Part shown: piece by piece, positions 1,508 through 55,792 of the stretch | Layout: each line of letters opens with the position of its first letter | How positions within the stretch are numbered: position 1 is the stretch's first letter | Source of the DNA: a virus | Lineage: Duplodnaviria > Caudoviricetes | Virus record (IMG/VR): IMGVR_UViG_3300027373_000207 | Coordinates: 1 to 55,792 of that record | Reading direction: 5' to 3' (one strand) | DNA: 55,792 bases | Program-made: the position numbers and the translations under genes | The notes under the pieces: model-generated | Told to the model about the DNA's origin: nothing | The model's database searches: none | Seen by the model: the letters and a program-made list of their open reading frames with translations, nothing else

Positions 1508-1519
1508 TTAAATGCCCCC

Positions 1520-1768
1520 TTAAACGATTTTTCCCAGTATTACATAACCGCCACCCACGCAGGCCATTATCACCCTATCTCCTGAGACAGGATTATAACT
1601 TGAGAGATACGGATAAGCCTTGCCACTGATCGTCGTCTCCCCGTCGAAAAGCACTTTAGGTCTCCCTAAAGTGTAAGCACTATCTATCGCCCCAAAGGCG
1701 AACACAGCCGCAGCCTGATCAGGTTTTAACATTTTCAAAAAGTCTTCAGCAGACGGTATTCCGCTCAT
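1520..1768 (-). CDS. Small phage tail/baseplate protein (start revised to 1768)
   Basis: ATGA overlap with the upstream stop, AAGGAG RBS; YPYLSSYNPVSGDRV motif. Confidence 0.65.
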   Translation of the reverse strand: MSGIPSAEDFLKMLKPDQAAAVFAFGAIDSAYTLGRPKVLFDGETTISGKAYPYLSSYNPVSGDRVIMACVGGGYVILGKIV

Positions 1769-2877: not shown

Positions 2878-2878
2878 T

Positions 2879-33578: not shown

Positions 33579-33621
33579 GATAAATATAGCGGCATAAGCC
33601 GTTGGATTGGTGATTAAAACA

Positions 33622-37406: not shown

Positions 37407-37426
37407 TGGATTAAGGAGGAAGCGTT

Positions 37427-40400
37427 ATGGTTCAAATTAATTTACATACCGCCAGAGCATTTGCTGCAGAAGCTACCGCTCAGATGCGCGCAGGGGTGCC
37501 AGAAGATGTGCTTCGGCATCTGCTTTCTGCCAATTTTCCGCAGATGTTTCCCGAAAACCCATGGTGGATTCGGGAGCATAGCACAGGTGCAGAAGCTAAT
37601 GTACACTACATAGATGCAGCGGGTTTGAGAAGGAATGGCTTTATAGATTCGCTTGTTGGAATGACGGCAATTGAATATGAGAGGAATCTGACAGTCAGAG
37701 CAATCTACGCTGAAGGATACCATCAGGTTGAAGAGTATTGCTCAGCCTTATTGAATCAGGGCATTGCCTGCGATAACATCATTGGTGTATTATCAGATAC
37801 CGTTCATTGGGTTGCTTACCGCGTCCAAATCACACGGCAGCCAGTACCAGGAATGGAGTACGGTCCAGATAACATTACACTTCATGAAATCGACGCGGTA
37901 AACCTTGAAGACCATACGGACGATAATTTAACACGGTTTGGCCTGTTTATTAATCGATATCTTGGACGTGAAGGGTCACGTCGTCTTAGTGCTTTGGCAT
38001 TAGCAACAGATATGGGATTTGACAGTGTGTTCTGTTATCAGAATATTAATGGGTTTCGGGATGTTGTAGATGCTGCGTTTGCCGGAAGACCGCAATATGG
38101 CAATATGATTGCGTCTCTTTGGCAGAACTTTGTCAGCCACCTTGAGAACAACGGAAGGCAGCCGTTTAACCGGAATATCTATGTAAACGAATTGTATATG
38201 ATCACGCTTGCTAAATTACTATGCGCCAATATCCTGAACGGATCGGTTGTACGAGACGAAGGAGATAATCTGCGGAACATCCTGAATGGTCAATGGTTCA
38301 GGGCTATGGGGTTTGTGAATCTGGTTGAATATGACTATTTTGGATGGTTGAACGAAGCCCCACACGTCAATCAGATTGTAACGATTGCAAGGCAGATGCA
38401 AAATGACTTGGCAGCATATGATTACAGCATTATAGCAACGGAAGATTTGTTCGGGCCTTTGGTCGCGCAATTGGCAGATAGGGATCGTCGTTTACTCTTG
38501 GGGCAAGAATATACTCCACAGTGGTTGGCTCAGAAAATGGTATCTCATGCTATCGAATTGCTCCCTCAGTCAGACTTCCCTAGCTTTGTTGATATGTGCT
38601 GCGGCTCGGGTGTTTTTGTCGTTGAGACAATCAATCAAACGATTGCCCGATACCATATCGTTCCTGATAACTGTCCAACAAATTTGCTGCGTCAACTTAC
38701 AAACAGTGTAGTTGGATTTGATATTGACCCGTTGGCTGTTTTATTGTCAAAACTTAACTGGGCTATGGCTATGCGATCATTTGTACCGCATGCGGTAGCA
38801 GACTTGGTGATACCTATATACCATGCTGACTCTCTATTCACAGCTGCTCCGATTACTACTTTAATTGAGGGCAATTATGAGGAACAAGACCTGCGGATGG
38901 TTTTCGATGGCGAACAGGTTACTTTACCCGGATTCCTAATAACTCCAACGAATAGAAGACTGTTCGATTCTTTAATCCATAAGTGTTATGAAACCGCGAA
39001 AGCCAGGGCTCGTAATACTACAGAAGACTATACTCGCTCCCAAGCCGAGGCGCTTGTAGCAACGTTAATACGCGATGCAGGCGTTTATATTGAAGAAGAG
39101 CAACAAGAAGCTATAATAACGAGTTGTTATGCCTTGATTCCCACACTGGAAAGGCTTCAACGAGAAGGTCGCAATGGTATATGGCCTTTCCTTCTTGGTA
39201 ATAGCTATCGCCCTGGTCTGGTTAGAGGACAGTTCAATGCTATCGTGTCCAATCCGCCTTGGATGGCCATGAGCAAACTGGCTGACAATCCGTACAAAAC
39301 AGTTCTAGTTTCAAGAGCTGAACGGTACGGAATCAAACCAGCTGGTAGTTCGCATCTTCACGTTGAGCTTGCGACGGTCTTTTTCCTGAATTCAGTAGAT
39401 AAGTATCTGCAGGAAAACGCATTGTGCAGCATCATTATGCCAGATACACTATTGAATGGATATCATCACGAACCGTTCAGAAATCAGCAGTTTCTCCGTT
39501 CTGATTGGCAAGTTCATCTGCGGGTCAATGAGATTTGGGATGTTCCTACTGATACATTCAAGAATAAAGCAATTGTAGTATTTGGGCAGAAACTGAACAG
39601 CGCAAACCCCAACCCTATTATCGGACGGCGTGTACGTAGCGATTTACAAGATGAACCATGTGAATTTCGATTGTTACGGCAGGGGAGGCGCTCAGCTTGG
39701 TCCTCTAACCCAAATGCGCATGATATTACTGAAGGCGTCTTAGAACGAATTCCGTTTTTACAAGGCGCTGATATCATGCCAAGGACGCTGGTGTTTCATA
39801 ATGCTATGCGGCAACCTAACGGGCGATGGTCGGTTCGGCCTATCCCACGTCAGAATGATGACCTCTCATATCTTGTTAGTGACGCCAAACGCTACAGAGA
39901 TTTTTCGTTGAATGTACGTAATATGGACGATCAGTTTATCTACGACTGTTATATGTCAAATCACATTCTGCCGTTTTACGCCTGCGATGCAGCAAAGGCT
40001 CTTCTACCGATGAGGAAGGAAGATGGACGTTGGATGGTGGTAGACGAGGCCGACTTGGTACAGTATGGGGCAGGTGCATCAACTGCGTTCCAAAGTATTT
40101 TTGCTGAGTCCGGCGAATCTGCACATCAGTACTTTGATCGGATTAACTATCGAAACAAACTAAACCCACAGGTGTTTGATGCAATTAATGACGAAAAGCA
40201 AATTGTAATGGTGGGTGCCGGAGGCGGATACACATGCGCATGTTTTGTATCGTTCGATCAAATCGACAAAGCGAAGACTATTATTGACCAAACTATCTAT
40301 TGGTATATCGCTGACTCGGAAGAGGAAGCGCTCTATATAACAGGGATGCTCAACAGCATGGCATTGGATACCATTATAGCAGATTTTCAACCAGAAGGAG

Positions 40401-40669
40401 CTATGGGCAGACGTCATGTACACAAGCTACCGTATGCCGTTACACCACCATTTGATGTTGAAAATACTGCTCATATGCTTGTAGTTGAAAAAACACAAGC
40501 TTTAATAAACAGTATTGCGGTTGCTTTGCCAGGTTCGGAGGCCATTGGGTATTGTGCTCCATCGAGCAGCACCCTTGCAGTGCGCAGACGTAAGTTCCGT
40601 CTGTTCATTCATGAATTGCCCGAGATTAGGGACTATGAAGAGGCATGTCGTGAGGTCTATAATGTCTAA
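37427..40669 (+). CDS. Type IIG-like fused endonuclease-methyltransferase
   Basis: N-terminal ID...IEYE and QVEEY nuclease-like motifs; GQEYTP, DMCCGSG, SNPPW. Confidence 0.75.
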   Translation: MVQINLHTARAFAAEATAQMRAGVPEDVLRHLLSANFPQMFPENPWWIREHSTGAEANVHYIDAAGLRRNGFIDSLVGMTAIEYERNLTVRAIYAEGYHQVEEYCSALLNQGIACDNIIGVLSDTVHWVAYRVQITRQPVPGMEYGPDNITLHEIDAVNLEDHTDDNLTRFGLFINRYLGREGSRRLSALALATDMGFDSVFCYQNINGFRDVVDAAFAGRPQYGNMIASLWQNFVSHLENNGRQPFNRNIYVNELYMITLAKLLCANILNGSVVRDEGDNLRNILNGQWFRAMGFVNLVEYDYFGWLNEAPHVNQIVTIARQMQNDLAAYDYSIIATEDLFGPLVAQLADRDRRLLLGQEYTPQWLAQKMVSHAIELLPQSDFPSFVDMCCGSGVFVVETINQTIARYHIVPDNCPTNLLRQLTNSVVGFDIDPLAVLLSKLNWAMAMRSFVPHAVADLVIPIYHADSLFTAAPITTLIEGNYEEQDLRMVFDGEQVTLPGFLITPTNRRLFDSLIHKCYETAKARARNTTEDYTRSQAEALVATLIRDAGVYIEEEQQEAIITSCYALIPTLERLQREGRNGIWPFLLGNSYRPGLVRGQFNAIVSNPPWMAMSKLADNPYKTVLVSRAERYGIKPAGSSHLHVELATVFFLNSVDKYLQENALCSIIMPDTLLNGYHHEPFRNQQFLRSDWQVHLRVNEIWDVPTDTFKNKAIVVFGQKLNSANPNPIIGRRVRSDLQDEPCEFRLLRQGRRSAWSSNPNAHDITEGVLERIPFLQGADIMPRTLVFHNAMRQPNGRWSVRPIPRQNDDLSYLVSDAKRYRDFSLNVRNMDDQFIYDCYMSNHILPFYACDAAKALLPMRKEDGRWMVVDEADLVQYGAGASTAFQSIFAESGESAHQYFDRINYRNKLNPQVFDAINDEKQIVMVGAGGGYTCACFVSFDQIDKAKTIIDQTIYWYIADSEEEALYITGMLNSMALDTIIADFQPEGAMGRRHVHKLPYAVTPPFDVENTAHMLVVEKTQALINSIAVALPGSEAIGYCAPSSSTLAVRRRKFRLFIHELPEIRDYEEACREVYNV

Positions 40670-40830
40670 CGGTTAAAAAGCTGAGGTAAATAGGTTACCT
40701 GGGTTTGACGGTAAGGATGTTCATAAGAAATGTAAAAGCCTGTGAGGGCCGGCAAAAGGGTATCTCAGCCTCGCTTCCGCATGATGATGGGCGAGATATA
40801 GAATAATCGCCATAGGTGGAGGGAACAGTT

Positions 40831-43086
40831 ATGGAAAACGCATTCCAATGGGTGCCGTTTTACGAGGCACTTGCAGACAAGCTACTTACATACAGTAACA
40901 AACGAAGCGAACTCTTCGAATTGATAAAAAAGGTCACTTCGGAGCAGCCGCTTATGAAGTATCTCCATTTTGAGCGGGAGGACTGGTGGGGACCGCGCAA
41001 CCATCAAATTGACCCGTTTTCTGTGATCGGGGTTATGAATCGTGGTACAACGGACGCGAACCGCACAGTGCTGGCAAAAGTTCTTGCTGTAACGTTTGAT
41101 ATCAAGCTTTCCGCACCCACTCAGTTTGAGGGCATTCCAGTTCTAAATAATATGAACTCATTCTTCAATGGGGTGGATGAAGTTTGGGATTTATTTCTGC
41201 TAGCCATGAAAGCCGCTGAAACTAATGATTTCACCGCCGAATTCAAGGTGGCTTTTGAAAAAGCAATTGCAGTCAACGGTAACGGGCTTGCCTATATCAC
41301 AATGGGGTTGTATTGGATACGCCCCAATATATTTATGCCGCTTGATGGTAACTCCCGCTCATATGTTTCTACTAAGTACGGGGTAACCGCTCCGAGCGGT
41401 AATTGCTCCGGGAATGAATATATAGCTTTTCTTGATACTCTCAAATCGAAAGTGGCTGAACAAACACCCGGTATTACGCTCCCTGAAATTTCCTATGCTG
41501 CTTGGACAGAAAAAAGAGATTCGACCCCAGAAAGTAGTAATGCAAATACTAAGTTAGATGGAGTTGTATCTCCGTTTAGCGCCCCCACAGGACAAACCAG
41601 CGGAAATAAAATTCCTAGAAACCTTATCCTTTTCGGAACGCCCGGCACTGGTAAGACCTATAGTTCAATGCAGTATGCTGTTGCCATCATTGAAGAGAAA
41701 CCATTAGCCGATGTGAAAGCTGAGGATTATGAAACAGTATTTGCTCGGTATCTAAAGTATAAAGAAGATGGGCTTGTTGCATTTACGACATTCCACCAGT
41801 CATTCGGATATGAGGAATTCATTGAAGGTATTCGTCCTGTTGTCTCATCGGAGGATAAAGCTGAGTCTGGGCATGAAATCGAATATGAGGTGCACGATGG
41901 AATTTTCAAGGCTTTCTGTGACAAGGCAGGAACACCTATTGGGAGCGGTGCGAGCGTCGACTTAGGGATTGGCAAGAATCCGACTGTATGGAAAGTTTCA
42001 CTTGAAGGCACAGGAGATAATCCTACTCGAACCGAGTGCTTTGCAAATAGTCACATCCGTATCGGTTATGATAGCTACGGCGAAACCCTACCAGACACTT
42101 ATGAAAAGGGTGATAATGGGAGGAATATTCTAAACGCTTTCTACTACAAAATGCAAATCGGCGATATTGTTCTGTCGTGTTACTCAAACAAAACAATAGA
42201 TGCTATCGGTGTTATCACGGGTGAGCCAGAATGGCACGATGAATATCCTCACTACAAAAGGCTTCGCAAAGTAAAATGGCTTGTAACAGGCATCAACGAA
42301 GATATCTACGAGCTTAACTCCGGAAAATTAATGATGCAGCCATCAGTGTATAAGTTGTCAATCTCCGTTTCAGACGCCCTTCAGCTAATAAAAGGACTTA
42401 AGCCGTCCCTATTAACGCAAAAGGTGAAAATCCCGAATCGTGTCTTCATAATCGATGAGATTAACAGAGGAAATATATCGAAAATATTCGGTGAACTGAT
42501 AACGCTTATTGAGCCGACGAAGCGTATTGGGGCAAGCGAGCAATTGAGAGCCTCTTTACCGTACTCAGGACAAAACTTTGGTGTGCCTGACAATGTATAT
42601 CTTATAGGTACGATGAATACCGCTGATCGTTCTATTGCTCGAATCGACGCGGCACTACGCCGCCGGTTCAATTTTGTTGAGATGCAGCCAGAATCGACGA
42701 CACTCAAGGATATTCTTGTCGATGGCATCGACATAGCCAAAATGCTCGATACCCTCAACAAGCGAATCACCGTGCTACTCGATCGTGAGCATACCATTGG
42801 TCATTCATATTTTCTACAACCACTGAAAGCTGACCCGAGCATTGACCGTCTTGCAACGATCTTTGAGAATGAGATAATTCCGCTCCTGCAGGAATACTTC
42901 TACGACGATTACGAGAAGATCCAACTTGTGTTGGGTGATAACCAGAAGCCTGATGACAGCACTCGCTTTATAGTGAAAAAGACCGATGCCGTGAAGTTAT
43001 TCGGGAATGCCGATATTGACTTTCCTGAATACTACGAGATAAACAGTTCGGCGTTCAGGGAGGTCGACGCCTATGCGTTTATCTAA
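40831..43086 (+). CDS. mcrB: McrB-family GTPase of a modification-dependent restriction system
   Basis: GTPGTGKT, FTTFHQSFGYEEF, IIDEINRGN, MNTADRS, LRRRF. Confidence 0.93.
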   Translation: MENAFQWVPFYEALADKLLTYSNKRSELFELIKKVTSEQPLMKYLHFEREDWWGPRNHQIDPFSVIGVMNRGTTDANRTVLAKVLAVTFDIKLSAPTQFEGIPVLNNMNSFFNGVDEVWDLFLLAMKAAETNDFTAEFKVAFEKAIAVNGNGLAYITMGLYWIRPNIFMPLDGNSRSYVSTKYGVTAPSGNCSGNEYIAFLDTLKSKVAEQTPGITLPEISYAAWTEKRDSTPESSNANTKLDGVVSPFSAPTGQTSGNKIPRNLILFGTPGTGKTYSSMQYAVAIIEEKPLADVKAEDYETVFARYLKYKEDGLVAFTTFHQSFGYEEFIEGIRPVVSSEDKAESGHEIEYEVHDGIFKAFCDKAGTPIGSGASVDLGIGKNPTVWKVSLEGTGDNPTRTECFANSHIRIGYDSYGETLPDTYEKGDNGRNILNAFYYKMQIGDIVLSCYSNKTIDAIGVITGEPEWHDEYPHYKRLRKVKWLVTGINEDIYELNSGKLMMQPSVYKLSISVSDALQLIKGLKPSLLTQKVKIPNRVFIIDEINRGNISKIFGELITLIEPTKRIGASEQLRASLPYSGQNFGVPDNVYLIGTMNTADRSIARIDAALRRRFNFVEMQPESTTLKDILVDGIDIAKMLDTLNKRITVLLDREHTIGHSYFLQPLKADPSIDRLATIFENEIIPLLQEYFYDDYEKIQLVLGDNQKPDDSTRFIVKKTDAVKLFGNADIDFPEYYEINSSAFREVDAYAFI

Positions 43087-44350
43087 TAAGACCTATACCA
43101 TAACTGAATACGGCGGTTTTACGCGAGGCGCATCGCTTAGTGGATATCAGAGTTTACCCGAGAGAACCTTCGATGCGCTTGAAAATTTTATACTCGCTAA
43201 TACCTCCGGCACAGAAACAGAGGCGATCGAACTACTATCCTTGTCCGCTCGCCGCGGCATTGGTAAAATTATCACTGCTCGCAACTATGTCGGGCTGATA
43301 ACGATGACAGATGGGACAGTTATAGAGATATTGCCGAAGATAGCGGGCGGCGACCTTTCCGAGGGTGATACGAAGCGGATTTTTCTTGAGATGCTAAAAA
43401 CGCTGAAAGATGTGACATTCAAGGACTTTAACGTTTCGCACTTGCATGCCGACAAATTGAGTCTCCTTGAAATATTCATCAAGATGTTTCTCGATGAGGT
43501 GTCTGTTCTGACTAAGCAAGGGTTGAAAGCTGCATATATGCCTGTTGAGGCTAACGAACGGTTCTACAAAGGGAAACTGCTAGCTTCGCAGAACATTAAG
43601 CACAATCTGATGAACTATGAGCGATTCTTTGTTCGCTACGACGATTTCAGCTTTAACCGACCCGAAAATCGCCTGATTAAGTCCACGCTCCGCTTCCTGT
43701 TGAAACAGACTGCAGATAGCCGCAACCGTCAAAACGCCGCCCGATTGCTCGCATTTTTTGTAAGTGTGGATTTTTCAGAAAGCTACGAAGCTGACTTTTC
43801 AAAGTGCATTAGCGACCGCAGCATGAGCCACTACGACAAAGCGCTTTCGTGGTGCCGCGTTTTCCTCCGGGGCAACAGTTTTACTGCCTTTGCCGGAAGT
43901 GAGGTTGCTCTGGCGCTTCTATTCCCGATGGAAAAAGTTTTCGAGAGTTTTGTTGCAGCCAAGTTTCGCAAGCACCTTGTGAGTGGTATCAGCCTTCGGA
44001 CGCAAGACACCAGATATAGTCTATTTGATAGCCCGACCCGTGCCTTTGCCCTTAGACCAGACCTTGTTTTAGAATCTGGCGAACGTACGGTCGTTTTGGA
44101 CACAAAGTGGAAACTGCTCTCTGATAATGCAAGGAACAACGGGATTTCGCAATCCGATATGTACCAGATGTACGCTTACAGCAAGAAGTATGATGCAAAA
44201 GGGATAGTCCTACTGTATCCGCATTCCGATGCTGTAAGTAAAACAGACATAAGGTATGTATCTGACGACAGCGTCAATGTCCGAGTTTCGTTTGTTGATC
44301 TTAGAAATATGGACGGTAGTATTTCTAAGTTGTTATCGGAGGTGTGCTAA
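43073..44350 (+). CDS. mcrC: McrC-family nuclease subunit
   Basis: IEILPK, LFPMEKVFE, RPD...LDTKWK, DMYQMYAY. Confidence 0.92.
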   Translation: MRLSNKTYTITEYGGFTRGASLSGYQSLPERTFDALENFILANTSGTETEAIELLSLSARRGIGKIITARNYVGLITMTDGTVIEILPKIAGGDLSEGDTKRIFLEMLKTLKDVTFKDFNVSHLHADKLSLLEIFIKMFLDEVSVLTKQGLKAAYMPVEANERFYKGKLLASQNIKHNLMNYERFFVRYDDFSFNRPENRLIKSTLRFLLKQTADSRNRQNAARLLAFFVSVDFSESYEADFSKCISDRSMSHYDKALSWCRVFLRGNSFTAFAGSEVALALLFPMEKVFESFVAAKFRKHLVSGISLRTQDTRYSLFDSPTRAFALRPDLVLESGERTVVLDTKWKLLSDNARNNGISQSDMYQMYAYSKKYDAKGIVLLYPHSDAVSKTDIRYVSDDSVNVRVSFVDLRNMDGSISKLLSEVC

Positions 44351-45360
44351 TGCCCTTTACCATAGTCCGGCAGGACCTCATGAAAATGAAGGTTGACGCA
44401 ATCGTCAATGCTGCAAACACCAAGCTCCAGATGGGTGGCGGCATTTGCGAGGCCATATTTAAGGCAGCGGGAGCGTCCGAACTGCAAGCCGCCTGTAAAA
44501 AACTCGCGCCTATTAAAACAGGTGACGCGATCATTACTTCGGGGTTCGGGCTACCCGCCAAGTTTGTTGTCCACGCAGCTGGACCAGTTTATCGTGGCGG
44601 CAAGAACGGTGAGGAAGAGCAACTGCGCCTTTGCTACCTAAACAGCCTGAAAAGAGCAGTGGAGAACAAGTGTAAAAGCATAGCATTTCCACTAATTTCA
44701 AGCGGCATTTATGGTTACCCGAAAGACGAAGCCCTACGTGTCGCCACGACAGCGATTCAGGATTTCCTCATAGAACACGAATTGGAAGTGTATCTCGCCG
44801 TATTCGACAAGGAAGCGTTCGCTGTCAGCGAGAAGTTACTTGGCGAAATCGAGAGTTATATTGATGAGCATTACTTCGTAGAACACAAGTATAATCGGCG
44901 TGAGTTGCTTGATGTCGAGCGTGAAGTCCTTGAGGAAGCCGACCTTATCAGCAATAATATGCCGTCACCCATGCAAGAACCGATTGTCGGCGCAGGTATT
45001 GACGAGCTGGTAGGCAGACTGGACGAGCCATTCTCGGAGACACTCTTGCGGTTGATTGACGCTAAGGGCAAGACAGACGTGGAAATCTACAAACGTGCCA
45101 ACCTTGACCGAAAGTTGTTTTCCAAAATCAGAACTGGTAAAGGTTATACACCAAGCAAGCGTACTGCCATTGCCCTTGCAGTGGCGTTGGAGTTGTCGCT
45201 CGATGAAACGGATGACCTTTTAGAACGGGCTGGATATGCTCTGTCCCACAGCCAGATGTTCGATGTTATTGTAGAATACTTCATTGTCAGCGGGAAGTAC
45301 GACGTTTTTGAGATTAACGAGGTGCTGTTCAAATACGACCAACCGTTGTTGGGAGGGTGA
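44350..45360 (+). CDS. Macro domain (ADP-ribose binding/hydrolase) fused to a C-terminal HTH
   Basis: DAIVNAAN..L..GGG, VHAAGP, SIAFPLISSGIYGYP; C-terminal YKRANLDRKLFSKIR HTH. Confidence 0.9.
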   Translation: MPFTIVRQDLMKMKVDAIVNAANTKLQMGGGICEAIFKAAGASELQAACKKLAPIKTGDAIITSGFGLPAKFVVHAAGPVYRGGKNGEEEQLRLCYLNSLKRAVENKCKSIAFPLISSGIYGYPKDEALRVATTAIQDFLIEHELEVYLAVFDKEAFAVSEKLLGEIESYIDEHYFVEHKYNRRELLDVEREVLEEADLISNNMPSPMQEPIVGAGIDELVGRLDEPFSETLLRLIDAKGKTDVEIYKRANLDRKLFSKIRTGKGYTPSKRTAIALAVALELSLDETDDLLERAGYALSHSQMFDVIVEYFIVSGKYDVFEINEVLFKYDQPLLGG

Positions 45361-46085
45361 GCATGCAAAATAGGTATGCCGGAGACGTTGGGGATTTTGG
45401 GAAAATTGGTTTGCTTAGGCAAATCAAAAGGTCAGAACTTGGCATCGGCGTAAATTGGTATTTGGCGCCAGATGAGAACCATAATGCCGATGGTAAACAT
45501 ATCGGATACATAACAGACACGCGATATAATGGATGTGATGACTCGCTGAGAAATTCACTAAAAGAAATAGTCAATGGTCAACGTAGCGTTTCTGCTTTGG
45601 AAACTATGAATCTTATCCCAAGCGCTGTTTATTATCACGAAGTGCTTCATTCACCCTTGCGGACTTTCTCCCGCAGGGATTGGCATAATAAAGCATTAGA
45701 AGTGCTTAGATATGCGGACATTGTTTTTCTCGACCCTGATAATGGTTTGCTAGTAAAAAGCGTATCTGCCGGGTACGCAAAAAGTAATAAATATGTGATC
45801 CCGAGCGAGATTGCCGACTATTTTGCCGCCGGAAAAAGCGTAATCATCTACAACCACCGCTGCCGAGAGCAAGAATCTGTCTATTTGCAGCGTTTTGAAT
45901 GGATGCATGAAGATTCAATCCTAAAGAATGCAGTTATCACTGGCGTGACGTTTAAGCGAGGTACAGTTCGAGACTACATATTTGCATTGCAACCAAGCCA
46001 TGCTGCAAGAATTATGGAATGCGTAGATAATATGCTCCAAAGCCCATGGAGAGACCACTTCGTAAAACTTAACATATCCCTCTGA
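45357..46085 (+). CDS. Uncharacterised protein, possibly RlmJ-like SAM-MTase fold
   Basis: RYAGDVGDFGK N-terminus and DIVFLDPDNG motif. Confidence 0.5.
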   Translation: MSMQNRYAGDVGDFGKIGLLRQIKRSELGIGVNWYLAPDENHNADGKHIGYITDTRYNGCDDSLRNSLKEIVNGQRSVSALETMNLIPSAVYYHEVLHSPLRTFSRRDWHNKALEVLRYADIVFLDPDNGLLVKSVSAGYAKSNKYVIPSEIADYFAAGKSVIIYNHRCREQESVYLQRFEWMHEDSILKNAVITGVTFKRGTVRDYIFALQPSHAARIMECVDNMLQSPWRDHFVKLNISL

Positions 46086-46088
46086 TAT

Positions 46089-46105
46089 GTCGCTTGAAAA
46101 GCGAC
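46089..46105. promoter_or_regulatory. Palindrome GTCGC-N7-GCGAC upstream of the vWA gene
   Basis: Perfect 5-bp arms upstream of a TGTTATCCT extended -10-like box. Confidence 0.45.
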
Positions 46106-46159
46106 CGGCTGCCCTGCCGAAATTGTTATCCTTAAGTCACAATAAAACTTAAGGAGGAA

Positions 46160-46819
46160 ATGGCAATGAAAAAAGGATTAACTGAATTGGTATTTATATT
46201 GGACAAAAGCGGCTCGATGGGTGGCTTGGAAACTGACACTATAGGTGGTTACAACTCAATGCTTGCCAAACAACAGACGGTTGAGGGTGAATGCCATATC
46301 ACTACCGTGTTGTTTGATAACAACCACGAGCTGCTCCACGACCGCATCGATATCAAGGCAGTCAGCCCAATTACCGAAAAGGAGTACCAGGTCGGCGGTT
46401 CAACCGCGCTCCTTGATGCCATCGGTAGGACAATCCATAAAATCGGTAATGCCCAGAAGCATACCGCCAACGATTATCAAGCCGAAAAGGTAATGTTTGT
46501 TATCATTACAGATGGAGAAGAGAATTCCAGTCGCGAATATTCGGCCGAGAAGGTCAAGGCGCAGATCGAGCGGCAAAAGAAAAATTATGGGTGGGAGTTT
46601 ATCTTTCTCGGCGCAAACATCGACGCGGTTGAGACGGCGGGTCGGTTCGGCATTTCCGCAGACCGTGCCCAGAACTACCACGCAGACAGTGAAGGTGTTG
46701 AACTGAATTTCCGTGTAATGAGTGAAGCGGTTGCAACATTCCGCGAATGCGCCTCAATGCCGGAGGGCTGGAGTGACGATATTCAAAAGGACTACAAGCG
46801 CCGAGGTGGTCGTAAATAA
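46160..46819 (+). CDS. von Willebrand factor A domain protein
   Basis: MIDAS DKSGS, TALLDAIG, ITDGEEN. Confidence 0.9.
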   Translation: MAMKKGLTELVFILDKSGSMGGLETDTIGGYNSMLAKQQTVEGECHITTVLFDNNHELLHDRIDIKAVSPITEKEYQVGGSTALLDAIGRTIHKIGNAQKHTANDYQAEKVMFVIITDGEENSSREYSAEKVKAQIERQKKNYGWEFIFLGANIDAVETAGRFGISADRAQNYHADSEGVELNFRVMSEAVATFRECASMPEGWSDDIQKDYKRRGGRK

Positions 46820-46902
46820 TGCTTGGAGCAATCATCGGCGACATCGTAGGCTCTGTCTACGAGTGGCATAATATTAATTCAATTTATGAATTTAAAGGAT
46901 AG
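46819..46902 (+). pseudogene. Truncated ADP-ribosylglycohydrolase (ARH/DraG) N-terminus
   Basis: MLGAIIGDIVGSVYEWHNI; TAATG-coupled to vWA; breaks where AT-rich DNA begins. Confidence 0.8.
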
Positions 46903-47556
46903 GTGCTGATGATGGGTAAGAAAGAAAAAGAACTCGTTAGTATTATCACAAAAAATGGGATTTTCAAAACAAGCGATATGCTAATTCCGGCGTTTATGGA
47001 CAAACTTTTATTTGGAAGCCTAAAAGAAGAAATATTAGATGTCTACAGAAAGCTTGGCGGCATGGAAGGAGAATGTGCTTTCAGGGGGAAATGGGATATC
47101 GTTACTGAAAAATGTATAATTGAATTAGATGAGCAACTGCATTTTAATGATTATAGATTAACTACTTTGGAATCGCCTTTATATGATGCAATTAGAACAT
47201 TTCCACTGGAAACATATAGAGACTATTGCAGGAGATATAAAGATAATTGTTTGAAAGCTGGTTCTTTCGGCGGAAAATGGACTAATGACAGTTGCGAGAA
47301 GATGTTTGGACCTGCTCAAAAAAACGGTGATTTGGCCGGAAATGGCAGTCCAAGATGGAAACAAAGAGCTTTTTATGACTTTTTCAAGGATATGTCTTAT
47401 CTAGTAACAAATATTCCGATTGTGAGACTCTCTATTTATGACGTGATAGATTATCGTGGGCGAAAATATGCACTGGGGGATTTGCTTGAAAGTGATTACA
47501 CAATAAGCGAAGATGCTGCTGTTGGAATTCAGGAGCTTATTAATAAGCGTATATAA
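46903..47556 (+). CDS. Putative Vsr-like / PD-(D/E)xK nuclease (DUF7255-like)
   Basis: WD...IELDEQLHF and QRAFYD..KD motifs. Confidence 0.55.
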   Translation: MLMMGKKEKELVSIITKNGIFKTSDMLIPAFMDKLLFGSLKEEILDVYRKLGGMEGECAFRGKWDIVTEKCIIELDEQLHFNDYRLTTLESPLYDAIRTFPLETYRDYCRRYKDNCLKAGSFGGKWTNDSCEKMFGPAQKNGDLAGNGSPRWKQRAFYDFFKDMSYLVTNIPIVRLSIYDVIDYRGRKYALGDLLESDYTISEDAAVGIQELINKRI

Positions 47557-47710
47557 TTACAGTAAGAAACATTTCAAATTATATGTTGATATTTTTCCTT
47601 GCATGGATAATACCCATAAATAGCTTAGCAATTATGCTAAATGAAAAGATGGATTCATGTTAATGGGAGATTAAGCTGGTCAATTTGAATTTAAAAGGAG
47701 ATGTTAACAA

Positions 47711-47926
47711 ATGGGGCGTTACAATGTAGAATTTAAAGCATTTAAAACAGGAGAGTGGTACACTAAAACGTCAACCGATAACATTGGAAGTGCATACTCT
47801 GTGGCAGATTGTAACAGCTATGGACGAGCATATAGAGTGACGGATACAGATACAGGTAGTATTTTAAAAGAAGCAGACGAAGATGCAGGAATGAAAGAAT
47901 ATATGACGGATCCAAAAAAAATTTAA
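47711..47926 (+). CDS. Small hypothetical protein
   Basis: AAAGGAG RBS; 71-aa ORF. Confidence 0.55.
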   Translation: MGRYNVEFKAFKTGEWYTKTSTDNIGSAYSVADCNSYGRAYRVTDTDTGSILKEADEDAGMKEYMTDPKKI

Positions 47927-48032
47927 GAGTCAGAATAAAATTATATTCACATATTATAAATCAAAATGTCGATTTATTGTTGTGATTATAAGCATCCCAT
48001 AATATAACAAATCTAAATTTTGGAGGTGACTT

Positions 48033-48134
48033 ATGGAAGGTAATAAAAGAATACATTTTCTTACTCCAAAGCCTCCGAAAAGAGAAAAGAAGGTTGAAAT
48101 CTATTGTCGTGTCAGTTCGAACAGTGCAGATTAG
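48033..48134 (+). pseudogene. Serine recombinase N-terminal relic
   Basis: GGAGGTG RBS; MEGNKRIHFLTPKPPKREKKVEIYCRVSSNSAD*, with TAG where the usual Q falls. Confidence 0.75.
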
Positions 48135-48264
48135 CTGAAAAATTGAAAGATTAGTGAAAGCAATAGCTTATTTCAAATACATATATACTTGATTTAAGTG
48201 AATGCTACCGAAGGACCGCTTTGTTGCGATACTCACAGGTTGTTTTTTGGGAGGAAGAGGATAA

Positions 48265-49458
48265 ATGTTTGAAGAGCTAAAAGAAACAGCAAAGATTTCA
48301 TATGATAATAAGGATTATGAAAAGGCTCTTGAATTATATGAAGAGCTAAAAAATCTTGATGAAGATAAATTTGAGAAGCAGTGCATATTTGCATATATGT
48401 GGTGTTTATTTCGAGTTAAAATTAACTCAGAAGAAGCATTCAATGATAATAATGTAAATGAAACCAGGTTAATCGTTAAATATATATTGGATCATCAGAG
48501 TAATAAAGACTTGCTCTTCCAGTTAACTGTTTTCAGGGTTCTAAAAGATTTTGAAAGAAGACAAAATTTTGATGCAAAAAAGGTTAATCTCTGGGTAGAT
48601 AAGCTCGATCCCAGTTCTCTATCTGAAGATACCCATACCTCAGAATATGATGGAAAGCAAGTTGAGTTTATGTCAAATAAGGAAAAGTGGTATACACTGA
48701 AAAGTAAATCATGTGAAAAGCTTGAAATATATGACGAATGCATACGTATCTCAAAGGAAGCACTTGATAGTATCAATAATCTACATAACAATAATGATAT
48801 TTGGTTTAAAAGAAGGATTGCCATCTCGATGGCAAAACTGGGGCAGCAAGATGAAGCAATAAATACTATAGGGGACATTCTCAAAATAAAGAAAGATTGG
48901 TTTTTATATCAAGATATGGGGGATATTTATTTAGCACAAAGTAATTACAAAGTTGCTTTAGAGAATTACTTAAATGCGATATTGGCTCCTGGCGACGATA
49001 ACATGAAGATAAAATTATTCTGGCAAACGGGGAATGCTCTTATAAATTTAGGTGATGCAGAAGGAGAGACTTTATTAAAGTCTTATTCGATAAAGATAAG
49101 AACTGAGCATGAATGGAAGCTTAACGCAGAAGAAAAGGATTTTTCTATACGATGCAAAGAATATATTGAGTCAAGTGAGGCTAGAGTGTTAAAAAGAAAA
49201 ATAAACGAGCTAGCCCAAAAATACAAATGGCAAGATTCTATAAAGCTGGAAGGTACTATATCAAAAATTTTACCCGATGGTAAGGCAGGATTTATTCGAA
49301 CAAGTGATAGTTCTTTCTATTTTAGGATGAATCAAATCAGAAGTCGTGGTGTAAATGCTCAGATTGGTTCAAAGGTAAGTTTCTATCTAGAAAAAGGGTT
49401 TGACAAGAAGAAAGGGTTAGAAACCGATAATGCAGTTAATATAAGTTTTCTTGAGTAG
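48265..49458 (+). CDS. TPR-repeat protein with a C-terminal cold-shock (OB) domain
   Basis: Helical TPR-like repeats; C-terminal GTI..I...GKAGFI...SFYF...G.KVSF...D.KK....NAVNI. Confidence 0.75.
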   Translation: MFEELKETAKISYDNKDYEKALELYEELKNLDEDKFEKQCIFAYMWCLFRVKINSEEAFNDNNVNETRLIVKYILDHQSNKDLLFQLTVFRVLKDFERRQNFDAKKVNLWVDKLDPSSLSEDTHTSEYDGKQVEFMSNKEKWYTLKSKSCEKLEIYDECIRISKEALDSINNLHNNNDIWFKRRIAISMAKLGQQDEAINTIGDILKIKKDWFLYQDMGDIYLAQSNYKVALENYLNAILAPGDDNMKIKLFWQTGNALINLGDAEGETLLKSYSIKIRTEHEWKLNAEEKDFSIRCKEYIESSEARVLKRKINELAQKYKWQDSIKLEGTISKILPDGKAGFIRTSDSSFYFRMNQIRSRGVNAQIGSKVSFYLEKGFDKKKGLETDNAVNISFLE

Positions 49459-49466
49459 GTGCGCAT

Positions 49467-50897
49467 ATGTTAAGTTTGAAAAACATACCTATTGATTTTA
49501 ACACAGTAGCAGAAAAGTTGGATAATTTTTCTAATGCTAAAGGTCTTACCATGGTAATAGAGACAAAAAATGGGTTTGTCGAGCTTAAGTTTTATAGCAG
49601 TATGCCCCCAGGTTTGTTAAGACTGTATAATACAAAAAAAGGCCTTACGATTGATGGTAGCACTGGTAAAAATCCAGACCTTAATAAGGAATTAATGGAA
49701 TTTATCAATGAAATAATTGCGGTTAAAAAAAATGATGAGCAAAGAATAACTTTCAAAAATGTTTCAAAGGATGATTTTGAAGGAATTATAAAGCGAATCA
49801 GTCTTTTTTCTGATGGAGAAAGGTCATATCAGATAGAGGACAAGGCAGTGAAAAATACACTCGAAGAAAAGCACTTGATTATAAAAGATATTAAATCAAA
49901 AGAAGAACTGAATCTCAAGTATTACACGAATGGGACGTTATATATATATGGATTTATGTGGGACCTTGGTGAAGAAATCGCCAACATTGCTCATAAGGTC
50001 TTGGGAAGGCAGAGACAAACACATGTCGATTATTTAAATGAAATTATCCATGCTTGCAATGAAAAATATATAACTTTCAATGTTGAAGAATGTATAGAGT
50101 GCGATAATCCATGCAATGGAAACTGTAGCAGTTTCTTACAAGACATCCATTACGGAGAAAAGAAAAGATATTCATGTGAAAAAGTAATTAACTATTATCT
50201 GCCCAAATATGCATACAGATATGCTTTTGAGATAGAACAGTTACTTAAGTTACATATTGATCAAATCAGAAACTTTGATAGTCTTAATATATTGTCAATA
50301 GGGTGTGGGCCTTGTACGGAACTGCTGGGAATAACAAATCTAAGTAGTATGATTAAGAAGCCTATCTCATACAACGGTATTGATCTAAATGAAAAATGGG
50401 AAAAAGTTCATTCGATAATTAAAGAGAAGTTATCGAAAAGAGTTACATTAAAATACCATTACAAAGATATTTTTGATTTTCTTAGTAGCATTACTCCGAT
50501 GAAAAAAGTGATTCAATCAAATATACTTATTTTTCAATATGTAATTTCCGATATTATAAAGTATAAATCTACTGAGGAAGTGCACTCTTTTATGCAGAGC
50601 CTATTTGGTGAGGTGGTTGAGTATTTGCCGAAGAATGCAATAATTATATTTAATGATATAAACCACAAGCAGAAAGCACGAGATACTTTTGATTTCTTTG
50701 CATCGTTGCTACCAGAGAATAAATATAAAATCCATAAATATTACTTTAAAGGAAAGACAGAAGAAGAATATTTTATTTACGGAGAAGAGATAAAAGAAAC
50801 CGAAGTCCCATATTGGATTCCAGATTACATAGAAAACAAATACAATCCCTGGTGTATTTGTAAAAGTGCGGCTTTGGTAATTGGAAAGGTAGAATAG
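49467..50897 (+). CDS. RnlA-like N-terminal domains fused to a class I SAM-methyltransferase-like domain
   Basis: LKNIPID...LRLYNTKKGLTIDGSTGKNPDLNKEL (RnlA-NTD-like, from memory); ILSIGCGP, GID, FQYVISD. Confidence 0.6.
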   Translation: MLSLKNIPIDFNTVAEKLDNFSNAKGLTMVIETKNGFVELKFYSSMPPGLLRLYNTKKGLTIDGSTGKNPDLNKELMEFINEIIAVKKNDEQRITFKNVSKDDFEGIIKRISLFSDGERSYQIEDKAVKNTLEEKHLIIKDIKSKEELNLKYYTNGTLYIYGFMWDLGEEIANIAHKVLGRQRQTHVDYLNEIIHACNEKYITFNVEECIECDNPCNGNCSSFLQDIHYGEKKRYSCEKVINYYLPKYAYRYAFEIEQLLKLHIDQIRNFDSLNILSIGCGPCTELLGITNLSSMIKKPISYNGIDLNEKWEKVHSIIKEKLSKRVTLKYHYKDIFDFLSSITPMKKVIQSNILIFQYVISDIIKYKSTEEVHSFMQSLFGEVVEYLPKNAIIIFNDINHKQKARDTFDFFASLLPENKYKIHKYYFKGKTEEEYFIYGEEIKETEVPYWIPDYIENKYNPWCICKSAALVIGKVE

Positions 50898-50898
50898 A

Positions 50899-51837
50899 AT
50901 GATATTGAGTGTTAGCAGAAGAACAGATATACCGGCATTTTATTCGGATTGGTTTATTAAACGACTGAAAGAAGGCTACGTTTGTGTTAGAAATCCTATG
51001 TATCCAAAACAGGTGAGTCGAATAGAATTGAATCCAGATACAGTAGATTGCATCGTATTTTGGACCAAAAATCCAAAAGCGATGCTGTCAAAACTCGATG
51101 CTCTGAGTGAATATGAATTCTATTTTCAATATACGCTTAATCCTTATGGTAAAGATATTGAGACTAATTTGCCTTTAATTGAAGATAGAATCCAGACATT
51201 TATTGATTTATCTGAACAAATAGGCAAGGAACGTGTCATATGGAGATATGATCCTATATTAATTACTAACGAAATTGGACTGCAGTATCATATCGAAATG
51301 TTCGATAAAATAGCAAGTGCATTAAAAAACCATACAACTTCAGTAGTTATAAGTATCCTGGACAATTACCGGAAAATAAGAAAAAGAATGAAAGCAATAA
51401 ATAGTCTCGACATTACTCCATCAGAGATAGAACAAATAGCAGTTACCTTCAAAAAATTATCATATATTTATGGATTAAGGATTTCAAGTTGTGCAGAGGA
51501 TATAGACTTAAGACCCTTCGGCATCAATCCGGGTAAGTGCATTGACGATCAATTAATATCAAAATTATTAGGGCAGGAGATTACAATTCCAAAAGACAAG
51601 AACCAAAGAGGGGTATGTAGTTGTGTTGAAAGTATAGAGGTTGGGATGTATAATACATGCTTACATAACTGCAAATATTGTTATGCTAATTATGATGAAG
51701 AAACTGTGGCAGAACGATATCATCAGCACGATGTTAATTCACCATTTCTATACGGGAATGCTTCCAGTGACGATAAAATAACTGAAAGAAAATTTAAAAT
51801 TTATAAATCAGAAACTAGCCAAATGACTCTCTTCTGA
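50899..51837 (+). CDS. DUF1848 family (radical-SAM/SPL-like Fe-S) protein
   Basis: MILSVSRRTDIPAFY, FWTKNP, WRYDPI, CID, YNTCLHNCKYCYAN. Confidence 0.88.
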   Translation: MILSVSRRTDIPAFYSDWFIKRLKEGYVCVRNPMYPKQVSRIELNPDTVDCIVFWTKNPKAMLSKLDALSEYEFYFQYTLNPYGKDIETNLPLIEDRIQTFIDLSEQIGKERVIWRYDPILITNEIGLQYHIEMFDKIASALKNHTTSVVISILDNYRKIRKRMKAINSLDITPSEIEQIAVTFKKLSYIYGLRISSCAEDIDLRPFGINPGKCIDDQLISKLLGQEITIPKDKNQRGVCSCVESIEVGMYNTCLHNCKYCYANYDEETVAERYHQHDVNSPFLYGNASSDDKITERKFKIYKSETSQMTLF

Positions 51838-53764: not shown

Positions 53765-53932
53765 TTACTCAACACGGTTTATTTCATCCAGCACATCGGC
53801 ACCATGCTTTTCTATAATCTGCGAAAGCACCTTTATAAAATCCTGAAATGATTTTGATGTCCTTGCTGCATACAGTTCTTGAGGCAGGGCAACTTCGACC
53901 GTGGTTTCGGGTAAGCTTTTGATATTTTCCAT
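53765..53932 (-). CDS. 55-aa protein upstream of the recombinase (possible directionality factor; missing from the ORF track)
   Basis: MENIKSLPETT...FIKVLSQIIEKHGADVLDEINRVE*; GGAGGTG RBS. Confidence 0.65.
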   Translation of the reverse strand: MENIKSLPETTVEVALPQELYAARTSKSFQDFIKVLSQIIEKHGADVLDEINRVE

Positions 53933-54069
53933 TTACAATCACCTCCAAGTGAGGTGCTTATTTTGATTATAAGCACTTATTATCTTTTTGAGAAGTTTGT
54001 CGCTTCAGCAATAGAAGCACACCACAAATTGCACTGTGTAGAAATATGGTGTGCCTTGTCTTTATGTTC

Positions 54070-54404
54070 ATGTGCCTTATTTGCCACGCACCCCGGCAAG
54101 GGGGATATTTTGAGCTGTCATTGGCTTGACATCATAGCCCCGCAATACTGATCAGCCTTGTCCCTTCAAGAGGCCGCAAATATCGCAGGAACTCCCCCTC
54201 AAGTCTGTGGGAGGTCGTGAGAAAGTATCATTATTCCTGATGTGTGTCGTCGCATCAACCGTGCCAATGGTTGGTCTAATGGCTGCATTTATCGCTCCGA
54301 CTGTGCAATGCACTGTCATCATGGCGCTGCCCATTATGTCGCTTTGCCTTTCAGCCACATAGGATTTGTACTCAAAATACCGTATATTTAATTGTCAAAG
54401 AACA
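54070..54404 (-). ncRNA. Candidate long structured RNA/leader with a boxA-like 5' end
   Basis: TGTTCTTTGACAA; long-range helix 54331-54340/54128-54137; internal hairpins; no convincing ORF. Confidence 0.55.
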
Positions 54405-54792
54405 AAAAATCATATGACGCTAAACTCGTCTTACTAATCAGGACAAAAAACGGGTGAAAGTAAGGGGTGTAAAAGAAACTTTTTAAAAATATTTAAAAAA
54501 TTTCTGTTCAGGGGATTGTGTAGCGGACGAATATTTAGGCACAACAAAAAACACCTGCAACTCTTGGAAAAAATGCAAGTACTTAAGGTGCTGGAATTTA
54601 TCTCAAACATGAATTAAATCGTATCGATGAGCTATTTCAAGGCAAACAAGCGTTGATTTTGCTCTCGATTTTCATATAAATATTTCATAATTTTGCTGGC
54701 ACGAATGTAGTATCGCCAATAAAATGTTACTTATTGTATGTTGACTCATTGTATTCAAAGTATTAAAATAAATGTTGAGGTGAATATGCGTT

Positions 54793-55020
54793 ATGGATAT
54801 TGTGAAAGTCTTTGCAAGTAATGTAAAAAAATATAGAAATAGAATAGGCATATCTCAGGAATCTTTTGCAGAGAAAGCTGGACTGCATAGAACGTATATT
54901 AGTGCCTTGGAATGCGAGAAGAGAAGTATTTCACTAGATAATGTACAAAAAATTGCGGATGCTTTAGGTGTAGAAACATATTTGTTATTTATTGAAGATA
55001 ATAAAGATAATAAGGGATAA
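54793..55020 (+). CDS. XRE-family HTH regulator (C-protein-like)
   Basis: GISQESFAEKAGLHRTYISALE...ISL.N..KIA.AL. Confidence 0.9.
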   Translation: MDIVKVFASNVKKYRNRIGISQESFAEKAGLHRTYISALECEKRSISLDNVQKIADALGVETYLLFIEDNKDNKG

Positions 55021-55039
55021 TTTGAAAGGGGGTGCATGC

Positions 55040-55792
55040 ATGAATCGGACACATTATTATAATTATATAGAAACAAAGCTTGGGGAACTTGCATATCGTA
55101 TAAATATTCGTGGAAAAATAAACATACTTGATTTGAATATTCACTCTGAAACATTTTTTGCCGATTTATGCAACGTGCTATTAAACCTCCATTTGACTAA
55201 TATAAATGAGCTTAGACAAAATGTTGAAAGTATAGATCTTTTGGATGATGAAAACAAAGTTATTGTTCAAGTATCTGCGACATGTACGAAGCAAAAGATT
55301 GAAGACTCTTTAAGCAAAGAGATTCTAGCTTCTTATTCAGGGTACAGGTATAAATTTATTGCTATTTCGAAAGATGCTTCAACACTAAGGGGAACAAGCT
55401 TTAAAAATCCATACAATATATTATTTGAGCCAGCAACTGATATTATTGATAATGCTTCAATACTCCGGTCTATCATCAATAAAGAAATTGTAAAACAGAA
55501 AGAAATTTATGAATTAGTCAAGAATGAACTAGGAAATGAAATTGATATAGTTAAAGTCGATACCAATTTAGCTACCATTATTAATATTTTGGCTGCTGAG
55601 AACTTATCTGAGAATATTGATTCGCCTGAAATAAACGTGTTCGAAATTGATAAGAAGATAGAGTTTAATGATTTGACTGGTGTTAAGTGTACTATTGACG
55701 ACTATAAAATTTACTATCATAAAATTGATGAGAAGTACTCGGAATTTGATAAAGAAGGATCTAACAAGAGTTTTTCGGTTTGTTTATTGTAA
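55040..55792 (+). CDS. SMEK-domain protein (ABC-three-component / Lamassu-associated effector-like); possibly truncated
   Basis: LDLNIHSETFF, SIDLLD, IVQVSAT..KQKIE motifs. Confidence 0.65.
   Translation: MNRTHYYNYIETKLGELAYRINIRGKINILDLNIHSETFFADLCNVLLNLHLTNINELRQNVESIDLLDDENKVIVQVSATCTKQKIEDSLSKEILASYSGYRYKFIAISKDASTLRGTSFKNPYNILFEPATDIIDNASILRSIINKEIVKQKEIYELVKNELGNEIDIVKVDTNLATIINILAAENLSENIDSPEINVFEIDKKIEFNDLTGVKCTIDDYKIYYHKIDEKYSEFDKEGSNKSFSVCLL

Follow-up and report, generated by a model that had tools for sequence, protein, structure and literature searches.

A conserved folded leader RNA, homologous to canT of Tn916, precedes a serine recombinase gene in a prophage-bearing viral sequence

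The window analysed here is a stretch of 55,792 nucleotides (nt) of viral DNA (Duplodnaviria; Caudoviricetes; IMG/VR record IMGVR_UViG_3300027373_000207, positions 1 to 55,792). On its minus strand, a leader RNA lies 5' of a conserved open reading frame (ORF) of 55 amino acids (aa) and of the gene of a large serine recombinase (Table 1). The G+C content of the stretch encoding the RNA is 45-50%, compared with some 30-35% in its flanks. The RNA, the small ORF and the recombinase gene make up a cassette that is homologous as a single unit to five relatives (about 79% identity, from 54404 to 52063), with sharp borders at 54405 and at 52063, the latter about 35 nt before the recombinase stop codon. 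A preliminary description of this DNA had suggested that the region ahead of the recombinase is a structured RNA with motifs resembling those found ahead of xis-int in Tn916-family elements. Here, we show that the region encodes a folded RNA with a conserved genetic context and with homology to canT, the antiterminator of Tn916, and we weigh its possible functions.

Table 1. Features of the leader RNA and of the genes downstream of it, with positions in the window.
Feature	Position	Strand	Remarks
Leader RNA	54404-54068	minus	about 330 nt, 5' of the 55-aa ORF and the serine recombinase gene
boxA-like 5' box TGTTCTTTGACAAT	54391..54404	minus	start of homology to all relatives
Conserved box TTGACAATTAAATATAC	54382..54398	minus	directly 5' of P1; columns 1-17 of alignment A2
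Closing helix P1, 5' strand GGUAUUUUGAGU	54370..54381	minus	helix 1
Closing helix P1, 3' strand GCUCAAAAUAUC	54104..54115	minus	helix 1
5' domain	54235..54363	minus	helices 2-7: P2, P3, P4, CGC/GCG, P5, UGGCA-loop hairpin
P2	54363-54356 with 54244-54235	minus	double changes in 7/8 pairs
P5 hairpin	54317-54299	minus	in the 5' domain
UGGCA-loop hairpin	54273-54256	minus	in the 5' domain; covaries
Most conserved motif AUAAUGAUACUU	54223..54234	minus	3' of the 5' domain; alignment A2
3' domain, divergent Rfam pemK core	54117..54218	minus	cmscan alignment to RF02913; helices 9 and 10 covary
Hairpin CCUCCC/GGGGGAG	54214-54192	minus	in the 3' domain
Long hairpin	54187-54141	minus	in the 3' domain; covaries
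CUAUGA	54137-54132	minus	in the 3' domain
Short hairpin GUCA/UGAC	54130-54117	minus	in the 3' domain; covaries
3' hairpin UUGCC/GGCA with loop GGGGUGCGUGGCAAAUA (17 nt)	54072..54099	minus	helix 11
Terminator-like hairpin GGCACACCAU/GUGGUGUGC, then UUCUAUUG	54009..54054	minus	terminator scan, -13.9 kcal/mol
Conserved 55-aa ORF	53765..53932	minus	no Pfam family; separates the RNA from the recombinase gene
Large serine recombinase, 562 aa	52029..53717	minus	Pfam Resolvase, Recombinase, Zn_ribbon_recom

We searched for relatives of the RNA with blastn, using the non-coding stretch 54405-53930. It matched, at 68.5% identity, 33 Enterococcus plasmid records belonging to one group of the plasmid collection, and had no match in the phage collection. 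In E. faecium NZ_CP032307, the homologue is flanked by a sigma-70-family gene and a small ORF. The pairwise alignment of the window and Enterococcus sequences shows conserved blocks with compensatory stems between them, and a 17-mer conserved in this alignment occurs at 58 viral-contig loci (42 distinct) and in at least 120 stretches of contigs from a set with one genome per species. Among the matches listed, most are from Lachnospiraceae, Oscillospiraceae and other Clostridia, joined by Enterococcus cecorum. This 17-mer is the loop GGGGUGCGUGGCAAAUA of the 3' hairpin, and the invariance of the loop among its own matches is therefore by construction. A profile search returned 151 matches; 94 of them were full length with more than 100 bits, and these formed 32 clusters at 92% identity, whose representatives constitute our alignment A2. 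Several candidates were discarded. The 17-mer matches in unrelated phyla (L132, L164, L169, L172, L175 and others) have no match to the covariance model R1 presented below; we attribute them to chance and used them as controls. L028 and L040 contain the 17-mer, have no R1 match and were excluded from the family. A scan of viral contigs with the 15-mer GAAAGGCAAAGCGAC gave 67 loci, among which only the near-identical contig L103 matched the blastn query, while the others look like chance; none of the loci L062-L128 was matched by the nhmmer profile (L103 was left out of that search). The window-type subgroup, which is outside the reach of Rfam, gathers more than 100 loci in Clostridia and Enterococcus, placed before serine and tyrosine recombinases. 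Close homologues are present in strains of Clostridium minihomine, Oscillibacter ruminantium and Vallitalea maricola (L138, L178 and L194).

The comparison of these sequences reveals a conserved fold. The RNAalifold consensus of A2 has 61 pairs, with 93.2% of the cells paired, and 44 of the 61 pairs show compensatory changes on both sides among the 32 homologues. The covariation score is 0.520, compared with 0.246 in shuffled alignments (0 of 500 reach 0.520); the structure was derived from the same alignment that was used for counting, which makes the control with slid partners the fairer one, and there the score is at most 0.126. Pairs of the G-U type are frequent at several positions (for example UG 14, CG 10 and UA 8 at column 29/476), which fits an RNA of the minus strand. 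Single-sequence folding is unremarkable (z = -1.04), so the case rests on the comparative data and not on thermodynamic stability. These results show that the stretch encodes a real folded RNA of roughly 330 nt, in agreement with the preliminary description.

The fold is closed by helix P1 (UAUUUUGAG/CUCAAAAUA), 12 pairs of which 11 have changes on both sides and which is 97.9% paired. An unconstrained duplex search recovered the same helix in the window, in Tn916 and in the divergent Tn916-family locus L259. The expected helix was found in 14 of the 19 sequences searched in this way, the best duplex lying elsewhere in L129, L033, L039, L131 and partly L165, and the shuffle control of this search was not discriminating. 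Within the 5' domain, double changes affect 7 of the 8 pairs of P4, and the CGC/GCG pairs are invariant. The stem of the 3' hairpin has double changes in 4 of 6 pairs. In the loop of the P5 hairpin (A2 columns ~110-120), 22 of the 32 family members have the motif GGAGGUG, which is complementary to the 3' end of 16S rRNA; the window copy is without it.

The motifs on which the structured RNA had originally been proposed are all present on the minus strand at the places given for them: TGTTCTTTGACAA (54404-54392), GACATAATGG (54340-54331), CTATGATGTC (54137-54128), AATAATGATACT (54235-54224), GGCAGCGCCATGA and GGGGGAGTTCC. The pairings drawn between them had mixed outcomes. The long-range pairing of GACATAATGG with CTATGATGTC can be made by hand with 9 of 10 pairs, but the corresponding helix GACAUAAUGG/CUAUGAUGUC is not conserved: 53.0% of its cells are paired, compared with 53.6% in shuffles, and 420 of 500 shuffles are as good. 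The strands of the suggested hairpin CAGCC..CCAA/UUGG..GGUUG belong to other conserved helices, as CAGCC is the 3' strand of P4 and UUGG is in the conserved UGGCA loop of the hairpin CAACC/GGUUG. The hairpin GACAGUGC/GCACAGUC does have a compensatory version, GCGGUA/UACCGC, in the Enterococcus homologue.

We then surveyed the gene context of 126 loci in 40 clusters, of which 32 have enough downstream DNA and 38 have enough upstream DNA. A recombinase module is downstream in 31 of the 32 clusters. It is a large serine recombinase in 18 clusters and a tyrosine integrase in 13, the latter usually preceded by an excisionase of the HTH_17/Tn916-Xis type, and the remaining cluster has a helicase. 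This bears out the earlier conjecture that a single RNA is common to elements with tyrosine and with serine recombinases. A PemK toxin gene is the first downstream gene in 3 of the 32 clusters. In the window, the recombinase gene is downstream on the strand of the RNA. Upstream, a gene resembling sigma region 4 is found in 32 of the 38 clusters; a Pfam scan of 18 upstream proteins matched 12 of them to Sigma70_r4 or Sigma70_r4_2, with some matches below the curated cut-off. The upstream genes of Tn916 encode a split sigma factor, according to a recent preprint (bioRxiv 10.64898/2026.10.01.756105).

Two observations concern RNA motifs near these sigma-like genes. In a Christensenellaceae contig (L207), the sigma-region-4 gene ahead of the RNA has in turn a cyclic di-GMP (c-di-GMP)-I riboswitch upstream of it (3775-3863, minus strand; 74.9 bits; gathering score 35), a hint that this element's regulatory module is under the control of c-di-GMP. 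RF03532 (SQ2397, 'cis-regulator of HTH transcription factor') has matches below its gathering score of 100 in L256 (1-91, 63.7 bits), L138 (3675-3867, 47.0 bits) and L131 (1132-1348, 37.2 bits). They are upstream of sigma-like genes in Tn916 and in window-type elements, and may represent a second RNA motif of the regulatory region.

An RNA at an equivalent position is canT, the conjugation-associated antiterminator RNA of the conjugative transposon Tn916. In the paper describing it (PLoS Genet 2024; PMC11658703), canT is an orientation-specific, cis-acting and processive antiterminator RNA, located between orf8 and xis of Tn916, that works on heterologous terminators and needs no other gene of the element. 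It overlaps the non-functional antisense orf5. An active fragment of 452 nt starts 126 nt after the orf8 stop codon, and the mutation canT(S3), a change of ATA to TGC 283 nt after that stop codon, inactivates canT; with S3 or with a 162-nt deletion, reporter expression is below 5% (PMC11658703). The same paper presents canT as defined genetically in one element, its authors not pursuing a sequence or structural analysis there (PMC11658703).

We took Tn916-type loci from Enterococcaceae genomes by means of the Tn916-Xis Pfam family. The set of ORFs in one of these, locus L256, presumably matches the gene layout of Tn916. It comprises orf7, orf8, xis, int and an 83-codon antisense orf5, and fits the description of Tn916 in the canT paper (PMC11658703). 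Its non-coding region has the motifs in the order seen in the window (TGTTCTTTGAAAACTGAATA, CCGCCATGA, GAGCGAT, a hairpin with an AGCA loop, GCAACGAC and GATAATGATACT) as well as a 12-bp closing helix. We built the covariance model R1 from the 5' domain only, using 29 window-type sequences (alignment A3) and no Tn916 sequence. It matches the Tn916-type loci L255-L258 and L260 over the full model with about 41 bits (E about 5e-8, a rough value); the match in L256 spans 1183-1325 (41.1 bits, E about 6e-8). Scores are 24.8 bits in the divergent Tn916-family locus L259 and 30-40 bits in the PemK-linked and helicase-linked subgroups, and there was no match in 13 control loci. The suspicion of the preliminary description that Tn916-family elements have similar motifs in the same order ahead of xis-int thus proved right. 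Sequence similarity to Tn916 is too low for blastn, and the nhmmer profile of the family reaches only E = 5e-4. Its alignment with L256 starts at position 1155, where the published active fragment begins.

Several landmarks of canT have counterparts in the window. The S3 site corresponds to L256 1311-1313, the AUA of GAUAAUGAUACU, and this AUA is conserved in the window at 54234-54232, where 54234-54223 reads ATAATGATACTT. The closing helices of Tn916 (GUAAUCGAA/UUCGAUUGC) and of L259 (GCAGACAGA/UCUGUCUGC) have fully different sequences from P1 of the window and occupy the equivalent place. The order of elements is the same, with a boxA-like box, P1, the P2-P4 domain, GAUAAUGAUACU and a cluster of hairpins, and the position of the family resembles that of canT, on the same strand after sigma-like regulatory genes and before genes of excision and integration. 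There are also differences. The copy in the window precedes the 55-aa ORF and a serine recombinase gene, whereas the Tn916 copy precedes xis-int; it is without an upstream sigma gene; its 3' core lacks the first hairpin, and the third one is expanded; and it has a 3' hairpin (loop GGGGUGCGUGGCAAAUA) that is absent from Tn916-type copies. On the strength of these comparisons, the RNA of the window is a divergent member of the family that contains canT of Tn916.

This family overlaps a motif already in Rfam. The cmscan search recommended in the preliminary description, run on the whole window, gave no family at the gathering thresholds and one lead below them: RF02913 ('pemK RNA') at 54132-54234, with 19.5 bits, E = 1.9, a gathering score of 34.8 and an exact AUAAUGAUACUU. 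The same model scores 55.0 bits in L256 (1311-1411), starting at the AUA changed by canT(S3), and 42.5, 61.7, 59.5 and 62.5 bits in L259, L153, L165 and L182, respectively; it falls below the gathering score in L207 (30.0 bits) and L039 (25.9 bits). RF02913 has 61 positions, about 60 of the ~330 nt, and includes neither P1 nor the 5' domain nor the boxA-like box. It shares with the window RNA its start at AUAAUGAUACUU, the hairpins that follow and the closing AUGA. What follows the window copy is not a pemK gene but the 55-aa ORF with the serine recombinase gene. Together, these matches show that the 'pemK RNA' of Rfam, a motif of unknown function, is the 3' core of canT. The pemK motif reportedly comes from a 2017 survey of 224 candidate RNAs. 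The main text of that survey (PMC5737381) has no mention of pemK. In the literature we searched, which did not cover the supplement of the 2017 survey that should describe pemK, we found no covariation-supported fold of canT, no link between pemK and canT, no extension of the family to a subgroup missed by Rfam, no association of canT with serine recombinases and no likeness to boxA. The dinG RNA of Rfam was also considered, for one weak match overlapping pemK in L165 (27.5 bits; gathering score 46.9), and was dropped since the helicase-linked loci L186 and L197 have no dinG match.

Since the RNA of the window is homologous to canT, we regard a canT-like processive antitermination in cis as its probable function, and as the likeliest of those we considered. 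The nascent RNA would fold and stay attached to the RNA polymerase that made it, and would render this polymerase resistant to intrinsic terminators. On this model, transcription initiated at 54405 or further upstream would continue past the hairpin at 54054-54009 and through both the 55-aa ORF and the recombinase gene; in the excised, circular element it might also cross the element's end. The region homologous to ours in Tn916 being the published canT (PMC11658703), the antitermination role that the preliminary description had considered is supported. The activity of this copy, its transcription start and what would lie downstream of it in the excised element are inferred.

A number of observations weigh against this interpretation, besides the common origin of structure and covariation counts mentioned above. 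The window is among the exceptions in the survey of upstream genes, as no sigma-like gene was seen upstream of the RNA. Beyond the recombinase gene there are convergent plus-strand genes, and no long-range target operon is visible in the integrated state. The loss of the first pemK hairpin, the additional 3' hairpin and the sub-threshold score to RF02913 imply that the function of this copy may have diverged. A hairpin with a U-rich tail is found within 280 nt downstream in 29 of 36 clusters, compared with 12 of 36 shuffled sequences and 27 of 36 reverse complements, and the terminator call, barely above the latter control, is thus weak. A promoter scan beside the RNA of the window gave no convincing promoter. 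We rejected a sigma-70 promoter using the conserved TTGACA: its -10 element would coincide with a strand of P1 that covaries, and no such site came out of the scan. As for expression, short contigs from three of four metatranscriptome runs cover 54181-54451, and those of X15 also the flank 54422-54761; these contigs show neither strand nor transcript ends, may derive from DNA, carry no meaning in the parts that they leave uncovered, and hence amount to a weak hint of expression.

The box at the 5' end of the RNA raises the question of how such an antiterminator would work. This box is boxA-like, as the preliminary description had remarked, and resembles the boxA consensus of E. coli; homology to the relatives begins at it (54403-54405; TGyTCyTTGAmAAy). 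Two mismatches separate the box of the window from that of Tn916, TGTTCTTTGAAAAC (12 of 14 bases match), and among 36 family sequences the mismatches to the Tn916 box are at most 3 in 21 and at least 6 in 8. It overlaps the conserved box TTGACAATTAAATATAC, for which the family consensus is TTGAmAAyTGAATAyAC, with several columns invariant or nearly so. The expected place of the boxA of ribosomal RNA operons (rrn) is the 16S-23S spacer, and in the Enterococcus spacers the 14-mer box of Tn916 occurs with 1 mismatch, followed by CTGGATA, in all 3 rrn loci examined (TGTTCATTGAAAACTGGATA in the spacer, TGTTCTTTGAAAACTGAATA in Tn916 and TGTTCTTTGACAATTAAATA in the window). In contrast to rrn boxA and to the nut sites of phage lambda, what comes after the box in the window family is not boxB or boxC but about 300 nt of folded RNA. 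An exact copy of the Tn916 box with CTGAATA also occurs in an Enterococcaceae genome, upstream of the gene of a large secreted protein (L266, ~1495-1520, minus strand). A search with R1 at that box found no RNA there, and the box may mark other long operons.

A variant of the antitermination hypothesis would be that the signal is of the rrn type and depends on Nus factors: the box would bring in NusB/S10, the remainder of the rrn or nut signal would be replaced by the folded RNA, and the element would borrow the ribosomal antitermination complex of its host. The conservation of the box, the near-identity of the Tn916 box to the spacer boxes and the exact coincidence of the start of homology with it all argue for this variant. 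We nevertheless consider it rather unlikely. The active 452-nt fragment of canT starts at L256 1154, without the first six bases of the box (TGTTCT), and works in spite of this (PMC11658703); moreover, the box is poorly kept in the 8 sequences with at least 6 mismatches, and a term search in the canT paper gave 0 occurrences of boxA, NusB and NusG (PMC11658703).

Alternatively, the RNA could be a leader resembling a riboswitch, which senses a ligand or factor and locally controls the downstream terminator, the small ORF and the recombinase gene, without being processive. A large conserved RNA with multiple helices and invariant loops, placed as a 5' leader before recombinase genes and ahead of a hairpin with a U-rich tail in 29 of 36 clusters, would fit such a role. 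We give it a low probability, given that the homologous canT acts processively on several unrelated downstream terminators (PMC11658703) and that the count of terminators is so close to that of the reverse complements (29 versus 27 of 36). Also, no alternative pairing between the 3' strand of P1 and a terminator stem was seen, although this was not tested systematically.

A small RNA acting in trans, or an RNA antitoxin of PemK-type toxins, seems very improbable: family members above the Rfam threshold are indeed immediately followed by PemK/MazF genes, without an intervening antitoxin gene (L153-type, L165, L182, L039, L157), but PemK is downstream in just the 3 of 32 clusters and not in the window, and canT provided in trans fails to complement a canT mutant (PMC11658703). 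Equally improbable are two readings that dispense with an RNA: a coding sequence, either the 68-aa ORF (54152-54358) or an antisense ORF, and a site acting at the DNA level, such as a recombination site or a promoter. Stop-free frames of 60-128 codons do occur on one strand or the other in 32 of 32 homologues, Tn916 has the annotated antisense orf5 in the same place, and a recombinase gene is adjacent; yet the longest open frames vary in strand and frame among relatives, in 20 of 31 relatives the length of the segment homologous to the 68-aa ORF is not divisible by three, the anchored frame has at least two stops in 18 and none in only 3 of them, the variation is compensatory in helices and not codon-like, and mutations of the start and stop codons of orf5 leave the conjugation of Tn916 unchanged (PMC11658703). 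The coding-type conservation of the 68-aa ORF, which the preliminary description had named as the finding that would speak against an RNA, was thus not found among the 31 relatives.

Other cis-acting antiterminator RNAs are comparable to a canT-like RNA in function. One of them, conAn2, is part of the bipartite conAn system of pLS20 and other Gram-positive conjugative plasmids; it is a cis-acting antiterminator of 260-600 nt that is located in the operon leader of a mobile element and acts on heterologous terminators (PMC8191782). Immediately 5' of it is the gene of a small protein, and a long inverted repeat, of 20 bp in pLS20, closes the RNA. Its action at a distance, however, depends on the ConAn1 protein, while canT works without any protein of its element. 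We rejected conAn2, the RNA between genes 28 and 29 of pLS20, as a homologue, because we could detect no homology: with E values up to 10, R1 had no match in pLS20 1-50000 and the pemK model none in pLS20 2000-5000, and there is no shared Rfam family. The canT authors compare canT with HK022 put and Bacillus EAR, which are processive antiterminators made of RNA only and acting in cis (PMC11658703). These are much smaller, and we saw no match in sequence or structure between them and the RNA of the window.

The remainder of the cassette and of the window provides the genetic background of the RNA. The 55-aa ORF has 55-66% identity to 6 relatives; all 7 aligned relatives share an unchanged C-terminal core, QDFI.VLS.IIEKHGA. 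As it occupies the position that Xis has in Tn916, its product is a candidate recombination directionality factor. The end or attachment site of the element that owns the cassette may be at the 52063 border, with the recombinase gene reading outward as int does in Tn916. Elsewhere in the family, the recombinase gene is sometimes disrupted. In Anaerovirgula multivorans (L167, 2671-2889), a deletion has removed most of it and joined the small ORF to what encodes the C-terminal part of the protein; in the E. faecium plasmid (L002, 6681-9704), the homologous serine recombinase gene is split by a transposase gene of the IS3 family and adjoins bacitracin resistance genes. The rest of the window consists of a prophage on the minus strand (19-33248), with capsid, portal, terminase and polymerase genes, and of a plus-strand island of defence and accessory genes (33607-51837 and 54793-55792). 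This island encodes DNA methylases, McrBC, a Macro-domain protein, an RnlA-like protein and DUF1848, and includes a pair of helix-turn-helix (HTH) and SMEK/ABC-3C genes directly upstream of the RNA.

One broader scenario, which we put forward as speculative and rather unlikely, is that the canT and pemK-motif RNAs form one large superfamily of antitermination signals in mobile elements that mimics the rrn antitermination signal of the host, in which boxA would recruit NusB/S10 while the body of the RNA and the window-type loop GGGGUGCGUGGCAAAUA would dock on the polymerase. If this were true, conjugative transposons, serine-recombinase elements and prophage-linked cassettes across Firmicutes would borrow the rrn antitermination complex, and would use it to couple excision with read-through into transfer or late genes. 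P1, the AUA, the 5' box and the 17-nt loop are concrete positions at which these ideas can be tested. Our results bear on two questions: how RNA polymerase can be made insensitive to terminators by an RNA alone, and how gene expression is coupled to excision in mobile elements, many of them carriers of resistance genes.

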